Positions 37,893-47,024 of a stretch of 64,000 nt of DNA are shown here, in pieces. The stretch comes from Coraliomargarita sp. (GTDB taxonomy: Bacteria > Verrucomicrobiota > Verrucomicrobiia > Opitutales > Coraliomargaritaceae), in the NCBI GenBank assembly GCA_965216325.1, contig OZ244160.1, positions 511,809 to 575,808 of the forward strand, written 5' to 3'. The position numbers and the translations under genes are program-made. Position 1 is the first letter of the stretch. Every line of letters starts with the position of its first letter. Below the pieces are notes generated by a model. It worked only from the letters and a program-made list of their open reading frames with translations, ran no database searches and had not been told where the DNA came from.

Positions 37893-37955
37893 GTTCAACC
37901 ATCGTTCAAGGCCGAGCTTCGTCCCTCAGCTCGGCTAGAACGTTTATTGTTCGGC
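37893..37955 (-). other. attC-like site E (after yoeB)
   Basis: The minus strand reads TGA-GCCGAAC..CGTTCTAGCCGAGCT-GAGGGACGA-AGCTCGGCCTTGAACG..GTTGAAC. R'' starts directly after the stop, and R' matches GTTRRRY. Confidence 0.7.
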
Positions 37956-38210
37956 TCAGTAGTGGTGTCGTAGTTGAGCAATCTGAATTTCATCTCCTTC
38001 GATTCGATAAACAATTCGATGCTCTTCATTTATTCTTCTAGACCAAAAACCTGAAAGTGTGTGCTTCAGTGGCTCTGGCTTACCGATTCCTTCATGTCGA
38101 TTACGGTCAATATCCTTAATTAGCTCATTTACCTTCTTGAGCATTCTTTTGTCTGTTTTCTGCCAGTAGAGATAATCTTCCCAAGCTCGGTCCGAGAATA
38201 TTTTCTTCAT
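37956..38210 (-). CDS. yoeB: YoeB/Txe-family mRNA interferase toxin
   Basis: 84 aa. The pattern WEDYLYWQ..D....KK...LI.DI.R.P..G.GKPEPLK..LSGFWSRRI..EHR.VY ends with HHY. Confidence 0.9.
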   Translation of the reverse strand: MKKIFSDRAWEDYLYWQKTDKRMLKKVNELIKDIDRNRHEGIGKPEPLKHTLSGFWSRRINEEHRIVYRIEGDEIQIAQLRHHY

Positions 38211-38458
38211 TCAATCAATTCTCTTTCAGTTCCTTTTTTGGCATTCAATTGCTCGATGGAATCAATAAGTCGCTTTGCATTCTTTGGGCTTCTGAGCAGA
38301 TAGGTAGTCTCCTGCATAGATTCAAAATCTTCCAGAGACATCATGACTACAGCATCCGTGCCTTTCTTTGTGATGATGACAGGGTCGTGGTTCTCGCAAA
38401 CTTGAGTGATTGTGTTGGCCAGATTTTCTCTCGCGTGTGAATAGGTGATGGCGTTCAT
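38207..38458 (-). CDS. yefM: YefM/Phd-family antitoxin
   Basis: The protein begins MNAITYSHARENLANTITQVCENHDPVIITKKG. It overlaps yoeB by 4 nt. Confidence 0.9.
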   Translation of the reverse strand: MNAITYSHARENLANTITQVCENHDPVIITKKGTDAVVMMSLEDFESMQETTYLLRSPKNAKRLIDSIEQLNAKKGTERELIE

Positions 38459-38460
38459 GG

Positions 38461-38494
38461 TTGTCCAATATGCTGGACAATTGCATGCGGTCAA
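38461..38494 (-). promoter_or_regulatory. Putative TA-cassette promoter and operator
   Basis: On the minus strand, TTGACC (-35) is followed after 17 nt by an ATATTG-like -10. This overlaps the perfect palindrome TTGTCCA-GCATAT-TGGACAA, which lies 3 nt upstream of the yefM ATG. Confidence 0.5.
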
Positions 38495-38503
38495 ATTCTT
38501 TCT

Positions 38504-38563
38504 GCCGAACGTGGAGGATGAGCGATTAGTGGGCGCAGCACACTAGTTGCTCAATGCGACTGG
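38504..38563 (-). other. attC-like site A (R' to L'' part; the R'' remainder TTCTAC is at 42368-42373 beyond the introns)
   Basis: The minus strand, reconstituted without the introns, reads GTAGAAC-CAGTCGCATTGAGCAACTAGTG-TGCTGCGCC-CACTAATCGCTCATCCTCCAC-GTTCGGC. Confidence 0.7.
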
Positions 38564-45050: not shown

Positions 45051-45973
45051 TGGGTCTTTAATTCTCTAGCCATTCCGACAGCAGCAAAATCTGCCTTATC
45101 GAAGTCTATAGTCTGATTTTTAATCAGCGAGGAGTCTGTCACGACTGCAATATTCACGGACAAACTTGAGATGCCTTTCTCTATTTTTTGTCCTACTAAT
45201 CTTGCACCCACGACCAAATGTTTGGTTCCTGAGCCTTTCCAATTGATTGGTTCACTCAACTCGGAAAGCACATAATCCGATCCATCTTCCGAAGAGAACC
45301 TCTTCAAGCACTTTACTTTCAGCGGGAGTAATTGCTCCAGTTCTTCAGGACCTGAGTCGGTAGAGTAGATTTCAATCTCCAAGTCGGATATCTTAGCAGA
45401 AGAGGAGGAGTTCATCGCAATCTCTTTGAATTTAGCATAGAGATCAGGTGGCATGATATACTCGAAAGTTTCATGTTTCGGGTTTATTACCAATCCAATG
45501 TCTCCACCAAATGCAGTAAGAATACTCTTCATTGGCGCCCAAGCCATATAGCGATAATCCTTCTTCTGCTCCTCGAGATTATCTGCGTATTCGTTCCTCG
45601 TGAAAATGGGCAAGAGTGGCCTGTTCTCTGAGTCGGCAAGTAGGAGGACGCTGTTTAAATCATTTGGGTCCTTGGTAAGCATGCCGACTTCGGCTTCTTC
45701 GAGCGATTTTAGGAAGCCAGGGAGGTATTCCTTCATGCCCATTTTGATTAGTCCGATGGCTGCATCGACGTCATTGCCTTCTGACTTGGCGTGCTTTTCT
45801 AGCTCTGTCGCAATGTCTTTCTTCTGGTTAGGCGACAGGTCCTGTTTCTTTGTCGATCTTGCAGGCTCTCCAGTAGCTTGCTCTTTTTTTCTTTTATTCT
45901 TCTTCGGAAGATAAACGAAAAAATAGAGACCTAGGATTAATAGTAAGACAGGTATTAGGCTTCCATCATTCAT
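45026..45973 (-). CDS. Cassette ORF: N-terminally anchored 315-aa protein with a possible SseB-like domain; the last 7 codons and the stop lie inside the intron
   Basis: A TM helix (LIPVLLLILGLYFFVYL) and a Lys-rich linker are followed by LLLADSENRPLLPIFT..IGLVINP, which resembles SseB-family proteins (tentative). Confidence 0.6.
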   Translation of the reverse strand: MNDGSLIPVLLLILGLYFFVYLPKKNKRKKEQATGEPARSTKKQDLSPNQKKDIATELEKHAKSEGNDVDAAIGLIKMGMKEYLPGFLKSLEEAEVGMLTKDPNDLNSVLLLADSENRPLLPIFTRNEYADNLEEQKKDYRYMAWAPMKSILTAFGGDIGLVINPKHETFEYIMPPDLYAKFKEIAMNSSSSAKISDLEIEIYSTDSGPEELEQLLPLKVKCLKRFSSEDGSDYVLSELSEPINWKGSGTKHLVVGARLVGQKIEKGISSLSVNIAVVTDSSLIKNQTIDFDKADFAAVGMARELKTQSGSGSHH

Positions 45974-45983
45974 AATTTATTTT

Positions 45984-46039
45984 TGCTAACGTGGAGCATG
46001 AGCGACGGCGTAGCCGTTGCTCAATGCGCCTTGTTGGGT
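45984..46039 (-). other. attC-like site B (56 nt, intact)
   Basis: The minus strand reads TAG-ACCCAAC-AAGGCGCATTGAGCAACGGC-TAC-GCCGTCGCTCATGCTCCAC-GTTAGCA. The arms pair with an extrahelical T. Confidence 0.7.
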
Positions 46040-46963
46040 CTATTTATTTGCAATTCCAAATGGGATGTGAACCAGAGGGACATCTTTAAGGTCTGTATCC
46101 AGATGAGATACTTGATCGTCAAAGAACATGTGTGGCTTCATTATCTCTAAGAACCTCTTCTTTTCGATTCCTCCAGTTAAAATCATTTCATCTACTTCCA
46201 CATTCCATGCTTTCAAAGTATTGATCGCTCGCTCATGCGATGGAGCATTTCGTGCGGTAAGAATCGATGTTTTCAGCATCTTCTGATACGATGGATCCTT
46301 CCTCCTTTTCTTTGTTTCTAGCTTTTGGAAAAACGATAACTTCTTGAAGAAGTCAGCTAATAGTCCCGGGTTTAGAGGTATGTCTGATTTTGTGGTTTCG
46401 TGCTGATGGAACATGTCCAACTGTCCGGTAGTTTTATAGACGATTTCCGCCTCATCATCTGCAAGAACACCGTCAAAGTCGAATGCCACTCTTAGTTCGC
46501 TATCATCATTGTCACTAACGTCAGTATGCAGCATTAAGCCCGCTGGGTGGGAGCTCTCTATTGCTTCTTTAACATCATGTTGATTCGTTGATAAGAACAA
46601 TGAGATGTTAAAGGCAGGGATGTAACGAAATGGCGCAGCACCAGTAGTAAAGCATGCACGTGAGATATCTAAACCATGCTCTTTGATTGAATTGAAGGCT
46701 CTGATGCCAGTTTCGGGGCTATTTCTTGATAGGAGCACAACCTCAACGGGCTGTTCTTTTGAGTAGACCTTATTGATCTCCAGGAAACGCCGAATGAATG
46801 GAAACGCTGTCCCTTTTTCTAATGGCTTATTCTTATTTTCGATCTGATACTTCATGTAGGCTTCCACACCATTATTTTTGTATATGGAATCCTCGTGCCT
46901 AAGATCGAATAGGGCGTTTGTGGAAACTCCTACGACTAGAGTTCTGTCAATCGGATATGGCAT
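46040..46963 (-). CDS. Cassette ORF: HAD-type 5'-nucleotidase-family protein (PF06189-like)
   Basis: 307 aa. HAD motif I is FDFDGVL, with a TARNAPSHERAI block and a FFDDQ motif. The overall pattern recalls the bacterial 5'-nucleotidase family. This is from memory, not from a search. Confidence 0.6.
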   Translation of the reverse strand: MPYPIDRTLVVGVSTNALFDLRHEDSIYKNNGVEAYMKYQIENKNKPLEKGTAFPFIRRFLEINKVYSKEQPVEVVLLSRNSPETGIRAFNSIKEHGLDISRACFTTGAAPFRYIPAFNISLFLSTNQHDVKEAIESSHPAGLMLHTDVSDNDDSELRVAFDFDGVLADDEAEIVYKTTGQLDMFHQHETTKSDIPLNPGLLADFFKKLSFFQKLETKKRRKDPSYQKMLKTSILTARNAPSHERAINTLKAWNVEVDEMILTGGIEKKRFLEIMKPHMFFDDQVSHLDTDLKDVPLVHIPFGIANK

Positions 46964-46975
46964 TTATTTTATTCT

Positions 46976-47024
46976 ACCCAACAGTGTTATGTAACGGACT
47001 CAGTCCGTGATTAGCTGGTTTAGG
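46976..47024 (-). other. attC-like (or attI-proximal) site G at the head of the array
   Basis: The minus strand reads CCTAAAC-CAGCTAATCACGGACT-G-AGTCCGTTACATAACACT-GTTGGGT. The core fits GTTRRRY perfectly and lies 12 nt upstream of the cassette ATG. The arm pairing is weaker than at the other sites. Confidence 0.5.

Follow-up and report, generated by a model that had tools for sequence, protein, structure and literature searches.

Five integron gene cassettes, without an integrase in the 64 kb analysed (the window, a continuous stretch of 64,000 nucleotides) and with attC-homing group II introns inserted among them, very probably lie in this Opitutales-like verrucomicrobial chromosome. An integron-type cassette array of this kind had been proposed in a first-pass annotation, and the proposal is borne out by the attC geometry of the sites, the match of site B to a family covariance model, the recurring complementarity of the R' and R'' heptamers, the presence of IIC-attC introns and the lack of an integrase in the window. 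The six sites listed there are all present, with their coordinates and terminal heptamers (Table 1). The array occupies the minus strand at 37893-47024, where five co-oriented cassettes carry a 5'-nucleotidase gene, an orphan ORF, two small ORFs and the yefM-yoeB gene pair, and the GC content of the cassettes is 42-45% compared with 51-58% in the surrounding DNA.

Table 1. Features of the cassette array, in the order of the minus strand (attC sites written as R''...R'; ORF extents are followed by cassette extents).
Feature	Position	Strand	Details
Upstream array boundary G	46976..47024	-	49 nt; ends GTTGGGT (46976-46982); cassette 1 starts at G/TT there
Cassette 1 ORF, 5'-nucleotidase, 307 aa	46040..46963	-	Pfam PF06189, E = 1.5e-119; cassette 46981-45990 (992 bp)
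attC site B	45984..46039	-	ACCCAAC...GTTAGCA, 56 nt
Cassette 2 ORF, orphan, 315 aa	45026..45973	-	weak SseB-like match
attC site C	43085..43144 (AC of R'', stem, R' GTTGGCA) + 45051..45055 (first 5 nt ACCCA of R'')	-	ACCCAAC...GTTGGCA, 65 nt spliced
Intron I3, IIC-attC type, 1906 nt	43145..45050	+	Rfam RF02001, 126.6 bits; RT/maturase ORF 43572-44969
Cassette 3 ORF, 83 aa, basic N-terminus	42819..43070	-	no family match; cassette 43090-42705 (386 bp)
attC site D	42699..42804	-	TGCCAAC...GTTCTAC, 106 nt
Cassette 4 ORF, 78 aa	42456..42692	-	two predicted hydrophobic segments; cassette 42704-38510 (391 bp without introns)
attC site A	38504..38563 (C of R'', stem, R' GTTCGGC) + 42368..42373 (first 6 nt GTAGAA of R'')	-	GTAGAAC...GTTCGGC, 66 nt spliced
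Intron I2, divergent, IIC-attC type, nucleotides 2-1898 (nucleotide 1 = G at 38564)	40471..42367	+	RF02001, 116 bits; RF01998; RT/maturase ORF within 40495-42288, likely start 40822
Intron I1, 1906 nt, near-identical to I3	38565..40470	+	RT ORF 38992-40389
Cassette 5, yefM antitoxin (38207-38458) + yoeB toxin (37956-38210)	37956..38458	-	PF02604, E = 2e-23; PF06769, E = 4.6e-38; cassette 38509-37899 (611 bp)
Site E, terminal	37893..37955	-	GCCGAAC...GTTGAAC, 63 nt, stable hairpin

All of the cassette ORFs are intact. Cassette 1 has a GC content of 42% vs ~53% in its flanks, and the protein of cassette 2 found only itself among the 5.8 billion proteins searched; no stop codon precedes R'' in its ORF, which continues for 8 codons into intron I3. 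Start codons had been placed 6-14 nt after the core, which is the case in cassettes 1-4 (12, 10, 14 and 6 nt), but yefM starts 45 nt from it. The identification of a toxin-antitoxin cassette as yefM-yoeB likewise stands (PF02604 and PF06769), whereas the promoter attributed to it does not gain support, as the promoter-like TTGACC-16-CATATT at 38494-38467 ahead of yefM belongs to a type of match that occurs at chance frequency in the region. Upstream of cassette 1, 330 bp of non-coding DNA separate the array from an SDR gene, which in relatives lies in synteny with nirBD, and synteny ends exactly at the SDR stop codon; the far side is flanked by a DDE transposase gene and a truncated H-NOX gene.

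In four of the five cassettes, the opening R' and the closing R'' are exact reverse complements of each other. This pattern had been noted before, together with its exception, and both are reproduced here at p ~1e-9 (chance ~1.2e-9; binomial, four free positions per pair). The two heptamers of one and the same site are mutually non-complementary. Complementarity extends to both ends of the array: the GTTGGGT core of boundary G exactly complements the ACCCAAC that closes cassette 1, and the GCCGAAC of site E exactly complements the R' that opens the toxin-antitoxin cassette. The exception is cassette 2, in which R' (GTTAGCA) is not complementary to R'' (ACCCAAC). Among related arrays from Opitutales genomes and metagenomes, complementarity was exact at all 14 of the successive-site junctions examined, with 6/6 in an Opitutaceae MAG (L002) and 4/4, 1/1, 2/2 and 1/1 in loci L045, L077, L080 and L001, respectively. 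When the cassettes were modelled as circles the R box paired perfectly over 7 bp, and four of the five folded with a better energy.

Sites A-E are 56-106 nt long, where the lengths of A and C were computed with intron DNA removed (38564-42367 from A and 43145-45050 from C). The AAC and GTT triplets alone are strictly kept, the RYYY and RRRY positions deviating at some sites, and the folding (bottom) strand is the plus strand. A palindrome with unpaired extrahelical bases had been ascribed to each site. This description fits A-D, which have attC geometry: the basal stem of site D is 15 bp long, and on the bottom strand a G bulges out at the canonical EHB position; A and B each have a bulged A at that position, and C matches the canonical geometry in a one-nucleotide alternative register. 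Site E, however, is an atypical hairpin: the extra bases of its inner loop are carried by the opposite (5') arm of the bottom strand. At the array boundary, G contributes no more than a GTT core, and its 6-bp hairpin is not attC-like. Folding of the bottom strand, a check suggested earlier, was better than shuffles for B (z = -4.6), C (z = -5.8, spliced) and E (z = -4.3), but not for A (z = -1.4) and D (z = -0.4), neither of which is significant in its in-array form, nor for G (z = -1.1). In this form, both A and D are hybrids whose R boxes do not pair; the low value of site D is due to its long unstructured centre, and site A carries a mismatch in its L box (GGA/TGC).

Known and related attC sites provided further comparisons. 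A geometry rule was taken from 15 class 1 attC sites, all from plasmids, in which the 3' arm of the bottom strand reads [T]-N6-[G/C]-N3-N5-GTTRRRY; scanning with this rule located sites A-D, each on the plus strand; the spliced window gave five full matches, whereas 0.65 were expected (200 shuffles), and site D had 9/9 pairs plus 4/4 extension. A family covariance model (R2), trained on related sites of other genomes and with the window sequence excluded, matched site B at 41.8 bits (E = 2e-8), the stem of A at 18.2 bits (E = 0.03) and the remainder of C at 17.2 bits (E = 0.05). The match to A stops at model position 42 (the G of GTT) and that to C at position 43 (the GT of GTT), and thus both end exactly at the intron junctions; only the 3' half of site D was aligned (8.8 bits), and no match was found in the 64 kb outside the sites of the array. 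A second model (R1), trained solely on the 15 class 1 sites, also placed site B as its top match in the window (11.7 bits), but with E = 1.5. Among relatives of the attC family, R1 matched L054 at E = 0.026 and a site of the L045 array at 35.9 bits (E = 4.7e-7), the latter being chained via complementarity to sites of the family. Site E was matched by neither model nor by the geometry scan, and boundary G by neither model. Compared with class 1 sites such as those of aadA1, aadB, cmlA5 and blaVIM-2, the family shares the R'-spacer-L'...L''-spacer-R'' layout, the bottom-strand bulge followed by N3-N5-GTT and, in several sites, the apical GCGCAGC motif. It differs in that the bulged base, mostly G or C there, can be A, T, C or G here, in that a paired T beside a G.T wobble usually stands in place of the first extrahelical T, and in its spacers, with the conserved sequences GTRGA and GACTG.

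The 64 kb encode no tyrosine recombinase, as had been stated: searches with IntI1 (tblastn and phmmer, against all 260 stop-to-stop ORFs of at least 80 aa) gave a best E of 0.59, and neither a Phage_integrase/IntI-like ORF nor an intI pseudogene was found in the 17 kb upstream and the 37 kb downstream. The layout of a complete integron, with intI and its adjacent attI and Pc upstream of cassette 1, is absent from the window. Since no integron integrase was linked to the related attC family in any related locus retrieved, we infer recognition by IntI from geometry alone. A cluster of attC sites lacking an integron-integrase has been termed a CALIN (Cury et al. 2016, PMC4889954), and with four to five clustered sites, where at least two are called for, and no integrase nearby, the array is, within the window, a CALIN by the IntegronFinder definition. 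Its approximately five cassettes equal the CALIN average reported there, and it is likewise made up mostly of cassettes of unknown function, with no resistance genes and with an IS transposase gene near (PMC4889954). It differs in its host, an Opitutales-type verrucomicrobium from a phylum whose integrons are mentioned there only in passing, and in that the sites were called by geometry and by our own models. Similarities also exist to sedentary chromosomal integrons such as the Vibrio cholerae superintegron with its VCR sites, namely a lineage-specific, homogeneous attC family among neighbouring cassettes, ORFan cassettes, and a type II toxin-antitoxin cassette with a putative promoter of its own (the abundance of toxin-antitoxin systems in arrays is also noted in PMC7923331); in contrast, the array here has just five cassettes, next to which intI, attI and Pc are all missing.

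Sites A and C had been described as split; the split is real, but the elements responsible, unnamed at the time, are three group II introns on the strand opposite to the cassettes, located at or beside the GT/T of R'' (a slash before the final T or TT marks the insertion or cut point). Intron I3 is inserted at GT/TGGGT of the bottom strand of site C, and I2 at G/TTCTAC of site A. The insertion point of I1 lies two nucleotides beyond the 5-nt spacer of the site A stem, which is between nucleotides 1 and 2 of I2. Scores on RF02001 range over 116-127 bits across the introns, whilst RF00029 gave no score on them. The intron ORFs match RVT_1 and GIIM and no further domain, endonuclease included; for I3, which is 99.58% identical to I1, these domains were assigned through that identity, and the RT of I2 is 48% identical to that of I1. 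A domain V-like GAGCCGUAU is seen in the 3' alignment, and the 5' end of I2, G+TATGCCCGGCATG, aligns to GTACGCCCAGCATG of class 1 introns. A third copy of the intron RT is located elsewhere on the same contig and, as these introns target attC, it hints at more attC sites.

Group IIC-attC introns are known to insert into the bottom strand of attC sites at R'' (TTGT/T) and also occur in CALINs (PMC3001079, PMC7923331). The closest plasmid relatives of the introns found here (48-49% amino acid identity) lie in class 1 integron arrays, inside the attC sites of aadA1 and aadA11, on the opposite strand and at GT/TAGAC, with homologous 5' and 3' ends. As Chloroflexota and other class C-like RTs reach 45-51% against the 48-49% of the plasmid IIC-attC introns, I1-I3 are candidate members of the IIC-attC clade (S.ma.I2 and relatives; Leon and Roy 2009; Quiroga et al.). 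Shared features are bottom-strand insertion at R'' opposite to cassette transcription, the GT/T insertion point in the case of I1-type introns, RT and maturase domains without another matched domain, and homology at the 5' (GUGYGCC.GCAUG) and 3' (CUACCCGAU) ends. The sequences at the insertion points are CTGGT/T for I3, CTGGG/T for I1, ACTGG/T for I2 and TTGGT/T for a relative in L002, compared with AATTGT/T in class 1 controls. The differences are that IBS1 is TGGT or TGGG here vs TTGT there, that I2 sits one nucleotide further 5' (G/TT), and that one attC site holds two different introns, one of them placed directly after the first nucleotide of the other.

On this basis, each cassette begins with the TT of one GTT core, ends with the G of the following one and comprises a promoterless ORF, or the putatively self-expressed yefM-yoeB, followed by its attC site. 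The bottom strand of attC is predicted to fold into a hairpin with the R box, unpaired 5-nt spacers, a 3-bp L box, the bulged base and a longer stem. Present-day mobility would then depend on an integron integrase, presumably supplied from another source in trans, that would cut at G/TT and release circular cassettes with R'' and R' perfectly paired. The three group IIC-attC-type introns have very probably retrohomed to two attC sites, entering the bottom strand in each, and may be active still. The folded attC stem serves such introns as the 5'-exon recognition element, and insertion is directed to, or beside, the GT/T of R''. As the stem outlasts an insertion, site A could be hit twice. In this order of events I2 would be the older and I1 the younger intron: the distance of I1 from the stem in A equals that of I3 from the stem in C, and insertion at this stem-measured distance would have placed I1 one nucleotide inside I2.

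The junction of cassette 2, I3 and site C suggests a further, improbable, interpretation, which is that it captures the formation of a new cassette by the Leon-Roy route, whereby an attC stem reportedly joins a gene via recombination between two copies of an attC-homing intron. Consistent with such an origin, cassette 2 is the sole unit with an R'' (ACCC-A/AC) unrelated to its R', its orphan ORF is stopless before the junction and ends inside the intron, and the R'' bases that the model requires, the A (IBS3) and the AC (5' exon), are exactly those present. Fusion of two cassettes by internal deletion, of which blaOXA-10/aadA1 is an example, is the simpler and more likely alternative.

How the array came to stand without an integrase can be read in more than one way. 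A plausible reading, though one we stop just short of favouring, holds that it is the detached or distal part of a sedentary chromosomal integron with intI and attI elsewhere in the 3.06-Mb chromosome, its cassettes still being mobilised in trans. Around half of CALINs sit in replicons that encode IntI, and rearrangement is one route by which a CALIN can form (Cury et al., PMC4889954); the abrupt end of synteny at the SDR gene, the transposase and truncated H-NOX genes on the far side and the further attC sites hinted at by the third RT copy are all in keeping with this, whilst the lack of an intI pseudogene in the window speaks against it. This reading refines the main explanation and does not contradict it. 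It is rather unlikely that the array is instead a dead relic, in a genome without an integron integrase, whose immobile and drifting cassettes have been retained by the toxin-antitoxin cassette. Decay of this kind would account for the mismatched L box of site A, the interruption of two sites by three introns, the resemblance of cassette 2 to a fusion or truncation and the fact that G is not a proper site, but the heptamers remain exact in four of the five cassettes, site B retains its high score on the family model and no ORF has been disrupted.

The notion that the hairpins form a REP-like or terminator family, serving merely as homing sites of class C introns and not as recombination sites, is very improbable. 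Class C introns do also insert after ordinary terminator hairpins (PMC3001079, PMC7923331), and the in-array folds of A and D are no better than shuffles. The complementarity, however, runs across cassettes and not within hairpins, both here and in the five other loci, the geometry and bulge position are equal to those of known attC sites, the stems have no T-runs 3' of them, and no copies exist elsewhere in the 64 kb, so that this reading is effectively refuted. The first-pass annotation had itself observed that palindromes common behind unrelated genes, and lacking the complementarity, would point to a generic family; neither the further copies, in 64 kb, nor the lack of complementarity was found. 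The other refuting result named there, an absence of attC model hits at the sites, did not arise either, since R2 matched site B and the stems of A and C. Barely credible is an assignment of the units to another site-specific system, e.g. to Xer-dependent dif modules, even though the genes stand between short sites that resemble recombination sites and have no dedicated recombinase close by: the hairpins measure 56-106 nt and have AAC and GTT ends, unlike 28-bp dif-like sites of 11-6-11 structure, no XerC/XerD half-site consensus is visible in them, the crossover signature is located at G/TT, and attC-specific introns are present.

The array is a well-known kind of element found in a little-studied bacterial group and, beyond its attC family, its introns and the cassette 2 junction, it is ordinary. 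It adds a clean, fully resolved chromosomal cassette array for the Opitutales (Verrucomicrobiota) and defines the attC family of this lineage, in which the position of the canonical bulge is kept but the identity of the base is not. The introns indicate that attC-homing group II introns operate far beyond clinical class 1 integrons, and the double occupancy of site A directly shows that their insertion point is measured from the folded stem and not from the downstream sequence. How attC sites come to be attached to cassettes is a long-standing question, for which the junction of cassette 2 is a candidate test case.

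The region between 47024 and 37893 is very probably an integron-type cassette array: the observation made in the first-pass annotation was confirmed, and the reading proposed there is supported by the complementarity of the cassette ends, a geometry scan, a family covariance model and the presence of group II introns. Five coding units lie in the same direction on the minus strand (see table), in DNA with a GC content of 42-45% as against 51-58% in the surrounding 64 kb, and behind each is the imperfect palindrome that had been reported, with exactly the terminal heptamers (R''...R') ascribed to it. 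A promoter and terminator scan returned matches no commoner than chance. The opening R' was found, as claimed, to be the exact complement of the closing R'' in four of the five cassettes (GTTGGGT/ACCCAAC, GTTGGCA/TGCCAAC, GTTCTAC/GTAGAAC and GTTCGGC/GCCGAAC; chance about 1.2e-9), cassette 2 being the sole exception, and within any one palindrome the two ends are not complementary. This chained complementarity is as predicted by crossover at G/TT (the slash marking the break). It is not expected of a REP or terminator family, and the possibility that the palindromes are simply members of such a family is therefore extremely slight. When the excised circle was rebuilt, a perfect 7-bp R box was formed, and the folding energy was lower for four cassettes (see table). 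The same chain rule holds in 6/6 cases in an Opitutaceae MAG with seven sites (locus L002), in 4/4 in a metagenome contig with five sites (L045), and in 1/1, 2/2 and 1/1 in loci L077, L080 and L001, respectively.

Features of the cassette array and its far flank (window positions; site arms are written on the plus strand, which is the attC bottom strand)
Feature	Position	Strand	Description	Folding energy, array to circle (kcal/mol)
DDE transposase ORF	34322-35692	minus		
H-NOX ORF	36897-37162	plus	only first 90 of 163 profile positions matched	
EF-hand ORF	37021-37541	minus	overlaps H-NOX ORF	
Site E	37893-37955	minus		-13.8 to -19.8
Unit 5, yoeB	37956-38210	minus	PF06769	
Unit 5, yefM	38207-38458	minus	PF02604	
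Site A	38504-38563, 42368-42373	minus	5' arm GCCGAAC GTGGA GGA TGAGCG; 3' arm T TGCTCA [A] TGC GACTG GTTCTAC	-10.7 to -13.0
Intron I1	38565-40470	plus	RF02001	
Intron I2	40471-42367	plus	RF02001	
Unit 4	42456-42692	minus	78-aa hydrophobic ORF; no family match	
Site D	42699-42804	minus	5' arm GTAGAAC GTGAA GAG TAGTCG; 3' arm T TGACTA [G] CTC GACTG GTTGGCA	-13.9 to -19.9
Unit 3	42819-43070	minus	83-aa ORF; no family match	
Site C	43085-43144, 45051-45055	minus	5' arm TGCCAAC GTAAA GAG GGGTAA; 3' arm T TGACCC [T] CTC GACTG GTTGGGT	
Intron I3	43145-45050	plus	RF02001	
Unit 2	45026-45973	minus	315-aa ORF; SseB-like match only, weak	
Site B	45984-46039	minus	5' arm TGCTAAC GTGGA GCA TGAGCG; 3' arm T TGCTCA [A] TGC GCCTT GTTGGGT	-16.8 to -22.4
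Unit 1	46040-46963	minus	5'-nucleotidase; PF06189, E = 1.5e-119	
Site G	46976-47024	minus		

The reference set for attC geometry comprised 15 class 1 integron attC sites from plasmids (aadA1, aadB, aadA2, qacL, aadA5, cmlA5, aacA4, blaVIM-2, aac(6')-IIc, ereA2, dfrA14, dfrA12, arr-3, dfrA17 and blaIMP-1). Since the 5' arms were poorly aligned when full-length class 1 sites were submitted to MAFFT, trimmed arm-only sequences were used instead. The layout common to the 15 bottom strands is NNNNAAC followed by 5-6 nt, 3 nt and 6 nt in the 5' arm, and [T]-N6-[G/C]-N3-N5-GTTNNNN in the 3' arm, and sites A, B, C and D were parsed accordingly; the minimum-energy fold of site C lies in a register one nucleotide off this parse. 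Scanning both strands of the intron-spliced window with the class 1 rule alone recovered these four sites, each fully extended and on the plus strand, within 1.9 kb, together with one further, unrelated match inside the 37652-37751 inverted repeat, whilst 200 dinucleotide shuffles gave a mean of 0.65 such matches and never reached five. In class 1 attC sites the T is extrahelical, whereas in the window family it is usually paired and stands beside a G.T wobble; the window family is further distinguished by a variable bulged base and by the conserved spacers GTRGA and GACTG. An apical GCGCAGC (bottom strand) is common to sites A and C, to two sites of L002 and to 5/15 class 1 attC sites (aadA5, blaVIM-2, aac(6')-IIc, dfrA12 and dfrA17), a recurrence far above chance for a 7-mer.

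A covariance model built from 15 class 1 attC sites (R1) ranked site B first in the window, on the correct strand and with exactly the boundaries of the first-pass annotation (11.7 bits, E = 1.5); A and C lie beyond its detection because they are split, and D was undetected because of its long centre. In the L045 array, the same model detected one site linked to family sites by the chain rule (35.9 bits, E = 4.7e-7), and in locus L054 a family member at E = 0.026. A family model (R2), trained on 17 related sites from other genomes only, gave 41.8 bits for B (E = 2e-8), 18.2 bits for the stem of A (E = 0.03) and 17.2 bits for that of C (E = 0.05). Nothing else on either strand of the 64 kb fell below E = 2, so the attC family is restricted to the array, at least inside the window. 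Rfam contains no family for attC sites. Of 80 loci retrieved in a metagenome scan with AACGTNGAGCATGAGCG, seven were true family members and 73 were chance matches; no IntI is encoded on the contigs of the seven.

Six sites had been proposed at first pass, of which A-D have attC geometry, E is atypical, and G has a GTT core but is not an attC. Site E folds well (z = -4.3), and its R'' is exactly complementary to the R' at the start of the toxin-antitoxin cassette; in its inner loop, however, the 5' arm bears the additional base, the spacers measure 4 and 7 nt, and the site was missed by every model and by the geometry scan. It is probably a divergent attC of a family other than that of A-D. 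The geometry fits neither an inverted attC at E nor an additional site with GTTGAAC (37827) as its end; this heptamer is the exact complement expected of another cassette boundary, and no attC-like fold adjoins it. The direct repeat GGCTTGTT[G/C]AAC, found on the plus strand at 37822-37833 and 37888-37899 (66 nt apart), has the R' core of site E as its second copy and may be a trace of array-end formation. Just past site E, at 37652-37751, is a perfect 21-nt inverted repeat, GGTTCGCCCCAAAGACATCGG, whose 58-nt spacer holds an extra direct copy of GTTACCGATGTC and whose ends, GTT...AAC, are in reversed attC order. At the opposite edge, site G forms a 6-bp hairpin only (z = -1.1) and is regarded as an array boundary with a GTT core. 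It was rejected as an attI, an intI remnant being absent and local GAGTCCGT repeats alone being noticeable. GAGTCCGT occurs six times in the window (chance expectation 1.8 per whole window), and four of these copies fall within the 330 bp separating the SDR gene from cassette 1 (46994-47325), in a cluster that takes in a 23-nt inverted repeat (47154-47176/47193-47215) and a small hairpin within G, and that could represent operators or the accessory binding sites that belonged to a lost attI.

The splitting of sites A and C had been noted without a cause; the split was borne out, and its cause is three group II introns, I1 and I2 in A and I3 in C, all oriented opposite to the cassettes (Rfam RF02001, 116-127 bits). 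Each encodes a reverse transcriptase (RT) plus maturase ORF with no other domain match, and RF00029 (domains V-VI) scored none of them even at E = 0.1. I1 and I3 show 8 differences in 1906 positions, which are scattered along the intron and hence do not indicate recent conversion; I2 is a distinct intron, with an RT 48% identical to that of I1. The nearest relatives in the plasmid collection (48-49% amino acid identity, E about 1e-123) reside in class 1 integron arrays, in the aadA1 attC (between aadA1 and qacL) and the aadA11 attC (adjoining intI1), on the opposite strand at ...GAATTGT/intron/TAGAC, which is GT/T of the bottom-strand R''. I3 is inserted at the same point (...GACTGGT/intron/TGGGT), and the 5' (GUGUGCCGAGCAUG) and 3' (CGCUACCCGAU) ends align to the class 1 intron ends. 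The window introns behave as published for group IIC-attC introns, which are found on the bottom strand at R'', with the consensus TTGT/T, opposite to the cassettes, CALINs (attC-site clusters with no integron-integrase) included (PMC3001079, PMC7923331). A genome-collection scan with the intron RT returned L001 and L002, and the L002 array holds an intron 74% identical, inserted at GT/TCGAT. A relative of I1 with 82% nucleotide identity lies at 3353-5063 of an ENA contig (L160), where 193 nt are missing from its start and a DDE transposase gene directly adjoins it, making it a copy truncated by an insertion sequence. Outside the window, the 3.06-Mb contig to which the window belongs encodes a third I1-type RT variant (P0249), one residue off that of I1; the genome therefore has a minimum of one further intron copy beyond this stretch and, probably, a further attC.

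The ORF of cassette 2 (45026-45055 end) has no stop before R'' and terminates 8 codons into I3; with I3 spliced out, translation would continue across the entire attC, adding 26 codons. Among 5.8 billion proteins its only match was itself. On the simplest reading, cassette 2 would be the product of two cassettes that fused once the attC between them had been lost, a parallel to the blaOXA-10/aadA1 fusion of locus L029; the more interesting reading, capture of the attC via the intron, is unlikely.

No window ORF resembles a tyrosine recombinase, in agreement with the first pass: when IntI1 was compared by tblastn and phmmer with every one of the 260 ORFs of at least 80 aa, the best E was 0.59, and Pfam searches of neighbouring ORFs found none. 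Upstream of cassette 1 are 330 bp of non-coding DNA, then the SDR gene and nirBD; nirD-nirB-SDR is common to relatives at 82-90% nucleotide identity, with divergence from the SDR stop codon onward. Past that codon each relative differs, no empty site was found among them, and the insertion is not reconstructable. Among named taxa, the SDR and the RT have relatives in Lentimonas, Puniceicoccaceae and Opitutaceae, so the host is an Opitutales-type verrucomicrobium. Downstream of the array lie a truncated H-NOX ORF, an EF-hand ORF and a DDE transposase, and this far flank (34322-37647) is suggested to be rearranged. A CALIN was defined by Cury et al. as at least two attC sites with no intI nearby (PMC4889954), and within the 64-kb window the array is a CALIN under that definition. 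Verrucomicrobia were already among the integron-bearing phyla in Cury et al. (PMC4889954), and a verrucomicrobial best match for an IIC-attC RT has been reported (PMC7923331). The variable bulge, paired T, spacers and nested double intron are local particulars, none of which changes the category.

In site A the order is ...GACTGG-G-(I1)-TATGCCCGGCATG...(rest of I2)...CTACTCGAT-TTCTAC. Counting the G at 38564 as nucleotide 1, I2 starts with GTATGCCCGGCATG, which aligns to GTACGCCCAGCATG of the class 1 introns and thus places its entry at G/TTCTAC. I1 was inserted after I2, two nucleotides beyond the 5-nt spacer, exactly like I3 in site C, and so came to separate nucleotide 1 of I2 from nucleotide 2. 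The intron breakpoints are confirmed by the ends of the R2 matches, at model position 42 on A (the G of GTT) and 43 on C (GT). The double occupancy of site A suggests that the insertion position is measured from the stem; the attC stem would act as the 5'-exon recognition element, which would persist after insertion and stay open to repeat targeting.
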